A stretch of DNA of 64,000 bases from a virus, in UHGV virus genome UHGV-0299153. The stretch is one strand, 5' to 3'. The notes beneath the pieces were generated by a model, which ran no database searches, was not told the DNA's origin, and saw only the letters and a program-made list of their open reading frames with translations. Positions within the stretch are counted from its first letter, which is position 1. Each line of letters starts with the position of its first letter. Below are positions 2,317 through 60,427 of the stretch, piece by piece. Position numbers and translations under genes: made by a program.

Positions 2317-2697
2317 ATGAAAAACACTACTAAAGCTATTGACACCGTCATGTTTAACCTGGTTACCTTTCGCGAGGATATGAAAGATCTTCCACGTGAA
2401 ACAGTGTGCGATCACATTGAAAACTATCGCAAACTAATCAAAGAGTTGCCTTTAAAACGTGATCAGTATGCGGCTAACGCCATGCTTAATGCCATGATCA
2501 AAAAGATGATCCAGTGTGATTTAACTCTGGCCTATGACTATGCGGGTGGTCGTTTTGCAGTATACAATCAGCCCGTGCCCGGTATGGGCACCACCGAAGA
2601 ATTGCACGCGTTAAATCTGAAGCAAGATGTATGGGATAACATGCCCCGCGTGGTGGTGTGGGCAGAAAGCGGAAAGATTTACGGCGATAATTTTTAA
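2317..2697 (+). CDS. hypothetical protein (126 aa)
   Basis: Internal ATG of ORF 2284-2697 preceded by hairpin plus CACACAAAACAAAGAGGAAAACATC leader. Confidence 0.55.
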   Translation: MKNTTKAIDTVMFNLVTFREDMKDLPRETVCDHIENYRKLIKELPLKRDQYAANAMLNAMIKKMIQCDLTLAYDYAGGRFAVYNQPVPGMGTTEELHALNLKQDVWDNMPRVVVWAESGKIYGDNF

Positions 2698-2761
2698 TCA
2701 GGTAACAGGCGGCAAATATGCCGCCTTATTGTTAAACAGAGCTGCAAAAGAGGTACATAGA

Positions 2762-3133
2762 ATGGAATTTATTATTTTGGCTGTAGTAGTTGCCTTGTTC
2801 AACGCCTGGATAGCTGGCAAAATAGGTAGATCCGCTTTTCTATGGTTTGTTATATCTATTTTCCTGGGAGTGGTTGCAACCATTGTACTAGTTATCCTTG
2901 CAATTGTTGACAAGGATAATAATAAGAAGGGTAAAGTATTTTCCGACCTGTATGACGCCCAAACTTTTGTTAACGCCTATTATAGTGATCTTCCGGTCTC
3001 CTTGCGCTGCAGCCTGGCGCAACAAGTTTTTGATGAGGCTAAAACCAGAGATCAAGCCCATGAGATATGTTTAACTGAGGCGGATCGCCTATTTGAGAGG
3101 AATAGAAAATATGTGGGCCAGCCGTTTAAATAA
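2762..3133 (+). CDS. hypothetical membrane protein (two predicted TM helices)
   Basis: Internal ATG of ORF 2627-3133 with AAAGAGG SD; hydrophobic N-terminal half. Confidence 0.5.
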   Translation: MEFIILAVVVALFNAWIAGKIGRSAFLWFVISIFLGVVATIVLVILAIVDKDNNKKGKVFSDLYDAQTFVNAYYSDLPVSLRCSLAQQVFDEAKTRDQAHEICLTEADRLFERNRKYVGQPFK

Positions 3134-3243
3134 TACCACGTTAATTAATCCCTTTAATGAAGATTTGAAGCCAGCCGCCTGGCGTGATGGATTCAATAAC
3201 GAACGCTTTATTTTCAGGCCTGATCTTGAGGAATTTTATAACA

Positions 3244-49073: not shown

Positions 49074-49577
49074 CATAAAGAATATAACTAAAATAACTAA
49101 ATAATAAAAATAAAAGATCTAGTACTTATGGTACTAAGTACATATACTTAACTTATGTAGAATATATTAGATCCTAAGTACCATGTTTTTAAATTTATTA
49201 CTTACTATGGGTAGTGTCGGCCCTTCATTGGCACTCGCCTACGAGGGGCGAGATGCCGGGCCTCCCTAGTGCACACAATAACAGAGGTGCATACATGCAG
49301 GTCTGTTAACATGTGTGGGAGCGAAGCGATAGCGCAGGCCAAAGGCCGAGCACTAATGTGGGCCACCGACGAAAGCTTGCCAGCGCCGTAAGGAGTCGGT
49401 TGAGAGCCTCCCGCGCGAGTTTGGATAAAGTTTATGTGTGGAAACGGATAATGAGGCCCCTAAATCACTCAACAGCTATATAAACCATACCAAGTAATGC
49501 AATCGCACCAGTTTGATAGAAAAGCTCGTTACAAAGCGATACAGTGAGTTTTTCTATAACTTGAAGAGGAGGCAGCT

Positions 49578-50431: not shown

Positions 50432-50674
50432 ATGTTTAAGGTTAAGCTCGTTTTTCGTTCCATGAATGAGGATTATTTAGAAGATGAAGGTGAATTTCGT
50501 GCACTGGATGATGCAATAGATTTTGCCAACGACCTAGCTTGTATGAATACAGGTTATGGGCTATGCTGTTGGGATGGTGGTGTTCAGATCGGTGATAGCA
50601 AGATCTTCTACTTCTACCCTGAGCCTGATAACAAACAAATTAAGTATGTTTTATTTATTTGCGCTTTACAATGA
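50432..50674 (+). CDS. hypothetical protein (80 aa)
   Basis: ORF track. Confidence 0.5.
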   Translation: MFKVKLVFRSMNEDYLEDEGEFRALDDAIDFANDLACMNTGYGLCCWDGGVQIGDSKIFYFYPEPDNKQIKYVLFICALQ

Positions 50675-50739
50675 GGTTGTTTTCGTGTATCATGATGAAT
50701 ATCCAATTTAAAGATGAATTTGATGGCTTTATCTCCGGA

Positions 50740-50950
50740 TGCTTTGAAACAGGGTTCGGAGAAGACTGAGTTCCCCTTAGAGGGCTTGATAGTGCACCAC
50801 ACTTAAAATGGTAGGGGCAGCCAGCACATGACGATGTGACCCCAGCCAACCTGTAATAAGGTCGAGCCTGAGCGCGGTAATGGGTATAGCTGGAAAACCC
50901 ACTTGCTGGTCCAGGACGCTGGACAAGTCGCAGGGAACACCACCCTGCGG
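50740..50950 (+). ncRNA. candidate structured non-coding RNA (GC-rich, ORF-free island)
   Basis: GC-rich block in AT-rich context; hairpins CACAT-GACG-ATGTG (50825-50838) and GTCCAG-GACG-CTGGAC (50909-50924); CAGGGT/ACCCTG closing pair; only an implausible antisense ORF. Confidence 0.3.
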
Positions 50951-50955
50951 CGAAC

Positions 50956-50984
50956 TTGACAATCAGTATTTGCTGTGATAAAAT
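50956..50984 (+). promoter_or_regulatory. sigma70-like promoter
   Basis: TTGACA-17 bp-TAAAAT, 28 bp upstream of ATG 51013 (SD GGAGGA). Confidence 0.55.
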
Positions 50985-51012
50985 CCACCTATCACGTGAT
51001 AATGGAGGAAAC

Positions 51013-51351
51013 ATGGCGGATACAACTAAAAAGCGTCGCCGTAGAGGCAGACCTCTGAAAGAGGAGTCTAACGCCATTCAGCTAGAGAAGAACATCCTTG
51101 ATATGAAGGAATCTTTTATAGCGATGGTTCCAGAAGCTCACAAAGTTTTAAGAGAGCTGATGTTGGACCCGAAAACCAAACAAAATATTCGTCAAAGCAT
51201 TGCAGAGTATGTTCTTGATAAGGCAGACCGAATGCAGGAAGAATATGATGAGATGTTTGGTGAAGAGGAAGAGGTGGTAGTGGAAGAGGCTGAAAAACCA
51301 GCACCTTTTATGCCATTTACTACAGAAATACAGCCTGTTAGCAATAGCTAA
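51013..51351 (+). CDS. hypothetical DNA-binding protein (basic N-terminus KKRRRRGRP); possible terminase small subunit
   Basis: Internal ATG of ORF 50956-51351; strong promoter and SD; upstream of tRNAs and terminase large subunit. Confidence 0.5.
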   Translation: MADTTKKRRRRGRPLKEESNAIQLEKNILDMKESFIAMVPEAHKVLRELMLDPKTKQNIRQSIAEYVLDKADRMQEEYDEMFGEEEEVVVEEAEKPAPFMPFTTEIQPVSNS

Positions 51352-51917: not shown

Positions 51918-52014
51918 GCTAGGTAAGCCCTTTGGCAAGGGCGAGGATTTTTAATCCTGAAAATAGACGAGGTAGTCGTTGAATACATAGGTGGTTCGAT
52001 TCCACCGCCTAGCA
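51918..52014 (+). tRNA. atypical tRNA-like gene (anticodon loop TTTTTAA, apparent UUU; about 30-nt variable region)
   Basis: Acceptor GCTAGGT/GCCTAGC, D-arm GCCC-TTTGGCAA-GGGC, T-arm GGTGG-TTCGATT-CCACC; only a 4-bp anticodon stem; no encoded CCA. Confidence 0.45.
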
Positions 52015-52021
52015 CCTTTTT

Positions 52022-58493: not shown

Positions 58494-59501
58494 ATGATTA
58501 CTCGTAAAGATGAATTTGGCATTGTTGATTTAGGTGCTACTCTGGACCTTGTTCCGCGCCAATTCCGACTGATTACTGGTATGGATCTGTTCGAAACCCG
58601 TCTCGGCACCTCAACGATTGCTCAGATCGAGCGTGTTGATGAAGTTGTAACCGACATTCCGGCACGCCGTCGTGGTGGTGAGCGTAATTACGTTGGTAGT
58701 GAACGTGCTCAGGTTAAAAACCTGAACATCCCGTTCTTCCCTCTGGACAAAGGCATCACCGCAGCAGATGTTCAGAACTTCCGTCGTTACTTCACCCCTG
58801 ATGCTCCGAAAACTGTTCAGGACGTAGTAACCCGCGTTGTTCGCCGTATCCGTGTTTCTCATGAAGCACTGCGTGAGAAAGCGCTGTTCCAGGCTATTCT
58901 GGGTAAATCCTATGCACCAGGTGACACCACCTGTCAGTATGATTACTACACTCTGTGGGGTGTGTCCCAGAAATCTGTAGAAATTGATCCAGCGAAAGCA
59001 GATCAGGACCCGATGGAAGTTCTGGAAGACGCTCGTCTGCATATCGCCCTGCAAGCTGGTGACAACGCTGCTGGCTACCGTATCGTGGCTCTGTGCTCTC
59101 CTGAGTTCTTCAGTGCAATCACTCACCACCCGCTGGTAGAACTGGCATACACCTACTACGGCTCTGCTCAGGAACCTCTGCGTCGTCGTCTGGGTGCTGG
59201 CGGTCAGGACAGCGTTTATCGTGTGTTCGAACATAAAGGTATCACCTTTATCGAAGATATCTCTGGCAATATTCCTAAGAAAGAAGCTCGCATTCTGCCG
59301 ATGGGTATTGATCAGATGTTCCAGCTGCACTTTGCTCCGGCAGATGATGTTAACGAAGCAAATACCCCAGCACAGGAACTGTATATGTGGTATAAACACT
59401 CTGCATACCTGCGTGAAGAGAAGATTGAATCTGAAACTTCCATGCTGGCAGTTAACACCCGTCCAGAGCTGGTTGTTAAAGCAACTCTGAAAGGTGAATA
59501 A
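58494..59501 (+). CDS. major capsid protein (putative)
   Basis: 335 aa; follows scaffold/decoration genes; shifted codon usage (CTG, CGT, GGT, GAA) typical of highly expressed genes. Confidence 0.6.
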   Translation: MITRKDEFGIVDLGATLDLVPRQFRLITGMDLFETRLGTSTIAQIERVDEVVTDIPARRRGGERNYVGSERAQVKNLNIPFFPLDKGITAADVQNFRRYFTPDAPKTVQDVVTRVVRRIRVSHEALREKALFQAILGKSYAPGDTTCQYDYYTLWGVSQKSVEIDPAKADQDPMEVLEDARLHIALQAGDNAAGYRIVALCSPEFFSAITHHPLVELAYTYYGSAQEPLRRRLGAGGQDSVYRVFEHKGITFIEDISGNIPKKEARILPMGIDQMFQLHFAPADDVNEANTPAQELYMWYKHSAYLREEKIESETSMLAVNTRPELVVKATLKGE

Positions 59502-59581: not shown

Positions 59582-60427
59582 GTGAAGAGAGCCGTATATC
59601 CAGTTGAGTATGATCCGCTATTAAGAGTTTTCAACAATCAGTTAAGTTTTTATCAATTTTTAGCACAATATAACCCAGAAATCAATGTTGGTTTATCAGC
59701 CCTGCTGCCACCAACAGAATTCGTTATTGGCAGTGTTCACTATCCATGTAGAACGATTGTAGACTTCTTTGAGAAGATTGCAAAACATACAGGCCTGCCA
59801 ATTGATACTGGTATTTCAACTATCCGTATGGGTGTTATTCTTCTGTTCTTCACAGAGAACCTTGATGAAAGCACTTTAACACTGCAAAGCGGGGATGTCA
59901 ATATCACCCTCACCCCGTCAGTGTTTAAAGAGGTAGATGCTGCTTTCCAAGTTTCCGTGGCAGAGGGGCATCTATGGGACCCTGTAGGGATGCCTAAAAA
60001 AGTGACCATAAACGATGAGCAATGCAACATTGTTTATGAAGAAGATACCCAAACTTTCACCATTGAGTGGCCTAAGAAACGTTCTCAGGTTGTAAATCTT
60101 GGACTGGTTTCTACGATAGCTCCACCGCCTGAACCAGAACCGGAGCCGCCTGTAGGTCCTACTGAACCTGGTGGTGACGGTGAAGAATCCCCAGATCCGG
60201 CTGCACCGGGAGGCACTGAGCAGGATCCTGAACAGGCACAAGAATCAAGATCTTCTCGCAGTGATATTGATGCCATACTGCAGCAGGCCGCAGCTCTTAA
60301 CAACGAAGATGACAAAAGTGGTTCAAAAGATGCACTCCAAACCTTCGCCAAAGAGCACGGTGTTACCTTAAGTAAGGCAAAAACTTTCCAAAATATGATG
60401 AAAGATTTTGAGGCTGCACTGGCATAA
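59582..60427 (+). CDS. hypothetical structural protein with Pro/Glu-rich linker
   Basis: ORF track; PPPEPEPEPPVGPTEPGG low-complexity linker. Confidence 0.5.
   Translation: MKRAVYPVEYDPLLRVFNNQLSFYQFLAQYNPEINVGLSALLPPTEFVIGSVHYPCRTIVDFFEKIAKHTGLPIDTGISTIRMGVILLFFTENLDESTLTLQSGDVNITLTPSVFKEVDAAFQVSVAEGHLWDPVGMPKKVTINDEQCNIVYEEDTQTFTIEWPKKRSQVVNLGLVSTIAPPPEPEPEPPVGPTEPGGDGEESPDPAAPGGTEQDPEQAQESRSSRSDIDAILQQAAALNNEDDKSGSKDALQTFAKEHGVTLSKAKTFQNMMKDFEAALA

Follow-up and report, generated by a model that had tools for sequence, protein, structure and literature searches.

A structured RNA module shared by a Vequintavirus genome, T4 and other phages of Enterobacteriaceae

UHGV virus genome UHGV-0299153, analysed here as one strand of 64,000 nucleotides (nt; referred to as the window), is that of a Vequintavirus and is rV5-like. 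Upstream of its transfer RNA (tRNA) cluster lies a G+C-rich island (50740-50950). We interpret it as encoding a non-coding RNA, or one domain of such an RNA, that is transcribed rightward from the strand that also encodes the tRNA cluster and the flanking genes. A compact core of this RNA recurs in phage T4 and in many other phages, and its fold, distribution and possible role are the subject of this work.

The locus and the parts of the RNA

The record closest to the window is that of phiWec189, with 98.6% identity across the island in BLAST. The island has a G+C content of 55.0%, whereas the window averages 42.8% (standard deviation 3.8%, 211-nt windows); just 0.3% of the window's 211-nt windows equal or exceed the island's value, and the gap carries no annotation in any relative's record examined. 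Its unusual composition had been noticed in a first-pass annotation of the sequence, which also placed it correctly between a gene at 50432-50674 and a promoter at 50956-50984 and recognised two hairpins with GACG loops; both are present, CACAT-GACG-ATGTG at 50825-50838 and GTCCAG-GACG-CTGGAC at 50909-50924. The features of the locus are as follows.

50665-50693, + strand: promoter-like site TTTACA-17-TATCAT, 10/12 as a consensus match only; a possible start, with a transcription start site near 50700
50770-50955, + strand: structured non-coding RNA, with a body of about 186 nt; 5' end by homology, 3' end abutting the next promoter
50778-50795, + strand: Vequintavirinae-specific 5' motif TAGAGGGCTTGATAGTGC, invariant in sequence classes C and D
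50791-50803, + strand: small hairpin AGUG-CACCA-CACU, next to the 5' motif
50814-50843, + strand: hairpin P1, with GGGG (50814-50817) paired to CCCC (50840-50843), an internal loop and CACAU-GACG-AUGUG (50825-50838); compensated in class D
50844-50886, + strand: family-defining three-way-junction core (covariance model R1, 64.8 bits, E 1e-20)
50845-50848 and 50881-50885, + strand: helix P2, GCCA with U(G)GGU, bulged G at 50882; supported by pair counts
50849-50862, + strand: hairpin H2, ACCU-GUAAUA-AGGU; covariation in divergent copies
50863-50865, + strand: CGA of the core junction
50866-50875, + strand: hairpin H3, GCCUGAGCGC; covariation in divergent copies
50876-50880, + strand: GGUAA of the core junction
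50887-50908, + strand: variable linker with indels among strains
50909-50924, + strand: hairpin GUCCAG-GACG-CUGGAC, lineage-specific
50929-50949, + strand: terminal hairpin CGCAGGG-AACACCA-CCCUGCG, without a U tract, 6 nt before the next -35 box
50956-50984, + strand: strong sigma-70-type promoter TTGACA-17-TAAAAT (11/12), driving 51013-51351 (phrog_3330)

The 5' limit of the RNA body is taken from a divergent group of Vequintavirinae, class D (L027, L032, L045, L144). There a promoter, TTGACA-N17/18-TATACT, stops about 7 nt before GTTCCCCTTAGAGGGC (homologous GTTCCCC), and on its position we set the body at 50770-50955. The class D promoter is replaced by other sequence in the window lineage, whose transcripts may start from the promoter-like site at 50665-50693, as judged by its consensus match; read-through from upstream is equally possible. 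The 3' limit is marked by the promoter at 50956-50984. There is no terminator-like site in 50700-50960, the terminal hairpin being followed by GCGAAC and not by a U tract. Outside the core the body is more variable. The 5' motif TAGAGGGCTTGATAGTGC has a second copy 3' of the core in class D; the linker has a 4-nt deletion in phiWec189 and insertions of 7-13 nt in others; the second GACG hairpin has a variant, CUGGGC, that still pairs, as U·G, and class D carries GCUGG-GGACGGA-CCAGC in its place.

A CAGGGT/ACCCTG pair previously proposed to close the whole domain is neither conserved nor supported. CAGGGT (50750-50755) lies upstream of the likely 5' end of the RNA, where the sister lineage has a promoter instead, and ACCCTG (50942-50947) is taken up by a local hairpin of 7-9 bp, CGCAGGG/CCCTGCG (50929-50949).

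A conserved three-way-junction core

Across lineages the alignable part of the RNA is limited to about 43 nt. The module comprises, in order, the P1 hairpin, the 5' strand of P2, H2 (ACCU-RURNNA-AGGU), CGA, H3 (GC(N)-loop-(N)GC), GGUAA and the 3' strand of P2 with its bulged G. Within the core 23/43 columns are invariant across phages whose flanks cannot be aligned, and window positions 50849-50880 agree with all invariant columns of the family. A search of the 64-kb window with covariance model R1 returns a single copy, at 50844-50886.

Covariation analysis, which had been suggested in the first-pass annotation, supports the fold: P1 and P2 covary, as do H2 and H3 in divergent tandem copies. 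All 39 distinct real sequences form the three inner P2 pairs, which occur as four, four and two pair types respectively (A-U/U-A/U·G/C-G; C-G/U-A/G-C/G·U; C-G/G-C). Their covariation score is matched by none of 500 shuffles and collapses when the partners are slid, and the register with the bulged G beats the unbulged one. Compensated versions of the helix include GCCA/U(G)GGU (T4 and the window), CUGGU/A(G)CCAG (L155) and GCA/U(G)GC (class D), and within class F ACUA/U(G)AGU stands against ACCA/U(G)GGU. Two divergent tandem second copies, found with R1, are compensated in the remaining stems, with GCCU/AGGC in H2 and GUC-CGC-GAC and GCC-CGC-GGC in H3.

P1 ends 0-2 nt before P2 in all lineages and differs in sequence from one lineage to another. 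Its outer stems are GGGAA/UUCCC, GGGAG/CUCCC, GGGG/CCCC, GGAAC/GUUCC, AAAGG/CCUUU, AAAGC/GCUUU, GAAUG/CAUUC, GAGUG/CACUC and GUGUA/UACAC. Compensatory changes are also seen within lineages (GGGAA/UUCCC to GGGAG/CUCCC; AAAGG/CCUUU to AAAGC/GCUUU; CCUCAU/AUGAGG to CCUUAU/AUAAGG), and in Vequintavirinae both stems of the hairpin are compensated, GGGG..CACAU-GACG-AUGUG..CCCC becoming GGAAC..CUACG-GACG-CGUAG..GUUCC in class D. The fold comprising P1, P2 with its bulged G, H2 and H3 is thus kept by compensatory changes.

Three other pairings were considered and rejected. A pairing of 5' GUUCC with the 5' strand of P1, proposed by RNAalifold, is broken in 2/9 sequences, P1 being kept in all; CUAACC/GGUUAG in classes E and F is uncompensated where P2 compensates; and the complementarity required for kissing between the H2 and P1 loops is inconsistent.

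The G·U pairs fall on the + strand and every copy of the module lies on the strand of the neighbouring genes or tRNAs, so that the folded molecule is the sense transcript. The + strand of the island folds better than its shuffles (z -2.26; 3/200 shuffles equally good) and the - strand does not (z -0.79). The only long open reading frame (ORF) across the island is antisense (50655-51077, 140 aa), extends into the promoter and the next gene and, as had been suspected, is non-coding: the frame suffers shifts or interruptions in phiWec189, L005 and L038 and does not exist in class D. When sense and antisense frames are both followed through homologues, neither is preserved intact in L002, L005, L038 or class D, owing to shifts or breaks. 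Taken together, the covariation, the strand-specific G·U pairs, the frame-breaking indels in close relatives and the promoter of the sister lineage identify the segment as a conserved, structured, non-coding RNA.

A match in Rfam 15 was sought at several levels, again along lines suggested earlier, and the island matches no family even at E up to 10. The whole window scanned at gathering score gives nothing relevant on the island; region 50600-51100 at E up to 10 gives matches at chance level only (<=15.5 bits); and a copy from Phapecoctavirus likewise has no match at E up to 10.

Carriers of the module

With the window as BLAST query, 680 phage records contain the core at about 91-98% identity. 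Full-length matches account for 119 of them, all Vequintavirus, and hundreds of T4-like genomes match 45 nt alone (window 50842-50886), also at about 91-98%. In RB51 this 45-mer sits in the unannotated spacer between Ip4 and vs.8; used as a query in turn, the spacer retrieves 1003 phage records from Tequatrovirus, Mosigvirus, Dhakavirus, Jiaodavirus, Kanagawavirus and Moonvirus. Further lineages were revealed by more BLAST searches and by scanning metagenomes and IMG/VR for the pattern: class D of the Vequintavirinae, a subset of Phapecoctavirus (phiWec188, phiWec190, SF1-1, DE16), the N4-like Klebsiella phage Pylas, Klebsiella siphophages of 46 kb, and uncultured phages L047, L145 and L151. 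In all, the module is carried by at least seven phage lineages of Enterobacteriaceae and more than a thousand genomes, and the known hosts of these phages are all Enterobacteriaceae. No core match was found by blastn in 5,426 E. coli genomes, and a 17-mer gives 33 matches in bacterial genomes, without flanking similarity, about 100 being expected by chance on our estimate. One copy from a metagenome or metagenome-assembled genome (L025 = L076) is partial and scores 24.8 bits. Searching the literature by gene name, by topic and with the literal sequence yielded no account of the family, which may be an unnamed entry in a large catalogue of phage RNAs (PMC10690425).

The carriers differ. In T4-like phages the module occupies spacers or leaders of mRNAs, and in Vequintavirinae it belongs to a small, promoter-proximal RNA; elsewhere it is found in tRNA arrays and, as described below, in RNAs resembling transfer-messenger RNA (tmRNA). 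The genes downstream are unrelated (vs.8/phrog_1488, internal head proteins, phrog_3330). In T4 (L011, NC_000866) the core follows directly on the denV stop codon, at about 64.86-64.90 kb, between denV and vs.8 and upstream of the vs.8-regB-vs operon; T4-like copies generally sit after a denV or Ip4 stop codon, about 6 kb downstream of the tRNA cluster and sometimes in tandem. The annotated start of T4 vs.8 (T4p119) falls inside the RNA element (64858-64912). The 39-codon N-terminal extension that this start implies is open over the core in only one of 31 distinct T4-like sequences, T4 itself, and closed in the other 30; for this reason the extension is very probably an annotation artefact, and the true start of T4 vs.8 most likely lies at ATGAGAACATTT, as in RB51. 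A second copy in Klebsiella phage UTI-K1 (L012, 653-684) combines a T4-like 5' half with an L155-like 3' half (GGCAAUGCCAG) and cannot form P2; it looks like a decaying recombinant (35 bits against 65 for the first copy).

At every locus that has a tRNA gene the module lies on the strand of the nearest one, and outside the T4-like phages the distance is 46-720 nt, on the same strand, in all lineages but one. In the window the nearest tRNA is 568 nt downstream, with one ORF and two promoters between; in Vequintavirinae the module is 519-577 nt upstream of tRNA-Arg. In the Klebsiella siphophages it precedes tRNAs by 207-363 nt, whereas in L047 it follows the last tRNA by 46 nt. In Pylas it comes 719 nt after the tRNA array, and in L145 299 nt after tRNA-Pro, with an intrinsic terminator about 35 nt past the L145 module. 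In Phapecoctavirus it is found between tRNA-Thr and tRNA-Gly, within a presence/absence polymorphism of about 180 nt. This indel (phiWec188 L082, 1494-1690, versus Schickermooser L083, about 1702) consists of the module plus a 70-nt hairpin, and the shared 300 nt downstream contain long hairpins, related to the ones that flank the module in tmRNA-like RNAs of Klebsiella phages.

A tmRNA-like RNA occurs in Pylas (L084, MH899585), where an ORF-free gap of 1 kb containing the module gives a sub-threshold match to the Rfam permuted tmRNA model (33.7 bits, E 6e-5) and has a canonical resume codon with the tag ANDDVVLMAA. In Klebsiella siphophages L173, L120 and L094 a tag, ANEE[MV]YLAVA, is encoded about 250-280 nt upstream of the module, and in these four phages the module is one domain of a tag-encoding tmRNA-like RNA. 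P1 of the Klebsiella copies resembles E. coli ssrA nt 278-310 (PK4 region), with 79% identity over 34 nt (E 0.002); ssrA of E. coli differs in having no three-way-junction core (no R1 match in L201). These tmRNA-like genes are unannotated (Pylas, about 2480-3215; L173, about 1755-2330; L120; L094) and have tRNA-like pieces nearby; their scores with the tmRNA_permuted model are below gathering (33.7 and 26.3 bits) and ARAGORN misses them. A 2014 survey of tmRNA listed no enterobacterial phage among those bearing ssrA (PMC4131195).

The module is therefore a portable domain that is built into phage tmRNA-like RNAs among other carriers. The window RNA itself is not a tmRNA, as it has no tag, no tRNA-like domain and no significant similarity to ssrA. 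A scan for the tag pattern detected tags in Pylas, L173, L120 and L094 and none in the window, T4, Phapecoctavirus or class D; the copies of these last four show no tRNA-like domain, no match to a tmRNA model and no significant likeness to ssrA. Neither ARAGORN nor Rfam detects a tmRNA in the window, and homology was rejected on the basis of BLAST against E. coli ssrA, which gives only chance matches of 8 nt (window, T4 and class B).

The first-pass annotation had compared the island with the small stable RNAs encoded beside the tRNA genes of T4. The comparison stands in that this is a non-coding, conserved and structured RNA beside a tRNA cluster, and fails in that it is neither an analogue nor a homologue of rnaC or rnaD. 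These T4 RNAs (species 1 and 2), of unknown function, are located and transcribed with the T4 tRNA genes, and the likeness goes no closer than that of phage small RNAs near tRNA genes. Homology was rejected: the sequences differ by eye, R1 has no match in the T4 tRNA region (L081), and the T4-like locus matched by the island in BLAST is another one. Moreover rnaC has a tRNA-like T arm and acceptor at its 3' end, whereas there is no T arm in 50770-50955, and the window RNA, unlike rnaC and rnaD, does not directly abut a tRNA gene. In Rfam 15 at E up to 10, rnaC and rnaD themselves match nothing relevant.

The H2 loop invites another comparison. The hexaloop GUAAUA occurs in the GTPase-associated centre of 23S rRNA (nt 1093-1098). 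It is also the H2 loop of most copies, and the consensus R-U-R-N-N-A would keep the sheared G·A closure and the U-turn. The closing pair and the context differ, however, and other copies have GUGAUA, GUAAAA, GUAGAA, GUAGCA, AUAAUA or GUAACA; given these other hexaloops, mimicry of rRNA by H2 appears unlikely. Resemblances by eye to 5S rRNA, the Alu domain of the signal recognition particle RNA, and hammerhead, hepatitis delta virus (HDV) and twister ribozymes were dismissed, as no model matches, and a role as a sponge for CsrA was rejected since the 186-nt RNA contains 4 GGA motifs against about 3 expected from composition.

Several other features of these genomes were recorded. A 21-mer at 50710-50730, AAAGATGAATTTGATGGCTTT (within 50692-50769), is identical in window-type and class D Vequintavirinae despite differing flanks. 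It encodes KDEFDGF, which is part of a 25-aa ORF in the window; in class D the peptide belongs to an 8-aa ORF, MKDEFDGF, that has a good Shine-Dalgarno sequence. The 21-mer could be a micro-ORF or a regulatory site. A second ORF-free island, up to 60% G+C and preceded by an A+T-rich stretch, lies 1.3 kb upstream (49195-49460). It is 90-97% conserved, in 119 Vequintavirus records only and mostly unannotated, its + strand folds with z -2.7, and it has no Rfam match; by its conservation and predicted folding it is probably another structured RNA. Further unusually G+C-rich stretches of the window are 58951-59250 and 60081-60320 (0.555-0.58 in 211-nt windows). Within the tRNA cluster ARAGORN reports at 51918-52016 a 99-nt 'tRNA-???' with the four-base anticodon ATCC, which the Rfam tRNA model scores below gathering. 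Group I introns are matched in uncultured phage L145 (12784-13079; 54 bits, above gathering) and, below gathering, in the class D contig L032 (7591-8803); there is none in the window.

What the module may do

That the island specifies a structured non-coding RNA belonging to this family is, in our estimation, very likely. Its mode of action is approached by way of its conservation. The 23/43 invariant columns, the unalignable flanks, the known hosts, all of them Enterobacteriaceae, and the nature of the carriers, which are stable or early RNAs with ties to the translation apparatus, together suggest a fixed surface presented in cis to a conserved host macromolecule. The module, portable and folding autonomously, would most likely work as RNA on its own carrier transcript, with P1 stacked on a three-way junction in which the nucleotides of junction and loops are near-invariant. 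The fixed surface would consist of the RURNNA hexaloop of U-turn type, CGA, GGUAA and the bulged G, and would be offered to some conserved part of the host machinery for RNA processing, translation or transcription; binding of that host component might protect, process or route the carrier RNA. We regard action through a specific macromolecular partner as an evenly balanced proposition, and a role in the protection or processing of stable RNAs as possible but doubtful. For the statement as a whole, including the binding of a partner, we would put the probability at about 0.5.

Several points weigh against this interpretation. The case for the island RNA is built on sequence comparison and predicted folding. 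H2 and the first two (outer) pairs of H3 are invariant in the 39 sequences, and their pairing is supported by the two divergent copies only. The percentage paired for P1 is inflated in the reduced alignment A1, where a stem search was used to pick this helix, and for that reason only the within-lineage compensations of P1 are counted as evidence. When the window RNA is folded alone, the minimum free energy structure (-69.7 kcal/mol, versus -53.3 for the comparative fold) does not recover P2 or H3; it pairs the invariant GGGCUUG (50782-50788) with CGAGCCU (50863-50869), in competition with H3 and P2. This pairing is possibly an alternative conformer, as modelled, on which comparative data cannot decide since both segments are invariant. 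Finally, the distance from core to vs.8 start is nearly fixed (93-103 nt) in 29/31 T4-like sequences, which looks more like a gene-specific leader than a generic module.

A bolder version of the partner-binding interpretation, in which the module is a portable RNA device engaging a core host machine in many unrelated virulent coliphages including T4, seems to us unlikely. The machine could be RNA polymerase, with the module as a put-like antiterminator, which would explain read-through into delayed-early units and untranslated tRNA and tmRNA units, or the ribosome and trans-translation apparatus, as suggested by the incorporation of the module in phage tmRNA-like RNAs.

Among explanations of other kinds, the one that survives best, though still improbable, is a nuclease barrier or insulator with no partner, a compact, very stable fold that would stop 3'-5' exonucleases or the scanning of RNase E and so stabilise upstream tRNA precursors, tmRNA-like RNAs and early mRNAs. 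The module does lie at the boundaries of units: in classes C, D and E it directly precedes a promoter, and in T4-like phages it comes after the denV or Ip4 stop codon. It lacks an intrinsic terminator and stands among hairpin modules in the phage tmRNA-like RNAs. A barrier, however, would have no need of 23/43 invariant columns across unrelated phages, nor of H2 and H3 stems that are frozen though free to covary.

There is a slim chance that the module is an antiterminator or anti-pausing RNA of the put type, which as nascent RNA would bind the transcribing E. coli RNA polymerase and carry it through tRNA and tmRNA arrays and delayed-early operons. The putRNA of phage HK022, which has two stems in about 70 nt, is a cis-acting RNA specific for the host RNA polymerase (PMC9378689), and the module resembles putL and putR as a compact two-domain phage RNA, its helical domains being adjacent (0-2 nt apart). 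Every copy is in the sense orientation and those of class D are promoter-proximal; the module also precedes long untranslated arrays in the window, L094, L120, L173 and L199 as well as the vs.8-regB-vs operon of T4. But put RNAs consist of two simple stems arranged as a V, not of a hairpin followed by a three-way junction, and a search of the complete HK022 genome with R1 gives no match at E up to 10. Furthermore, the tRNA array precedes some copies (L047, Pylas), another has a terminator about 35 nt downstream (L145), and in the window strong promoters follow the element, so that read-through is not obviously needed.

A leader sensing a ligand or protein (a riboswitch aptamer or translational operator) for the downstream ORF is attractive only in T4-like phages, where there are tandem copies in some genomes and the near-constant spacing to the vs.8 ATG noted above; a conserved junction with covarying stems would also suit it. 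For the family at large it has little to commend it, as the downstream genes are unrelated, a promoter stands between the module and the next ORF both in the window and in class D, and several copies, embedded in tRNA arrays or in tmRNA-like RNAs, have no ORF that they could control.

Very unlikely is a new ribozyme that cleaves itself, or a dedicated signal for RNase processing, by which the carrier would be cut during maturation of tRNA arrays or two-piece tmRNAs. A small junction, invariant unpaired nucleotides and a portable architecture would be in keeping with it, and theta ribozymes, small structured RNAs of a minimal HDV-like kind, are known beside phage tRNAs (PMC10879173). The module nevertheless resembles no Rfam ribozyme at E up to 10, lacks the HDV-like nested double pseudoknot, does not abut a tRNA 3' end, and lies at a distance from tRNA ends that varies from 46 to 720 nt.

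The two remaining explanations are effectively excluded. An element acting as DNA (a hotspot of recombination or mobility, an origin, or a homing-endonuclease site) might account for the patchy distribution, the 180-nt polymorphism in Phapecoctavirus and the location in hyperplastic regions of T4-like genomes, yet compensatory changes and G·U pairs on one strand only point to a single-stranded transcript, the orientation always follows transcription, and the T4 origin oriE, which we considered and rejected, lies elsewhere (PMC3016281). Least credible of all is protein coding, whether by the antisense ORF or by small + strand ORFs: the antisense frame is open in the window, where G+C-rich sequence has few chance stop codons, but it is interrupted in relatives as described above and the conserved core is common to phages in which all frames are closed.

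The finding is an RNA family new to Rfam 15 which is of a known general kind, structured phage RNAs beside tRNA genes, and has a well-supported fold, without match in the RNA family library tested, and a very wide distribution. It is common to at least seven phage lineages that otherwise share little, and is present even in T4, the best-studied phage, where it was masked by the over-extended annotation of vs.8. The near-absolute conservation of 23/43 positions in distant phages of Enterobacteriaceae argues for a specific and important interaction with the host, and as T4 and rV5-like phages are genetically tractable its function is directly testable. The unannotated tmRNA-like genes of Klebsiella phages offer a second lead, into phage control of ribosome rescue. 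Should the module prove to be a device engaging a core host machine, it would represent a new class of host-hijacking RNA and not a passive structure.

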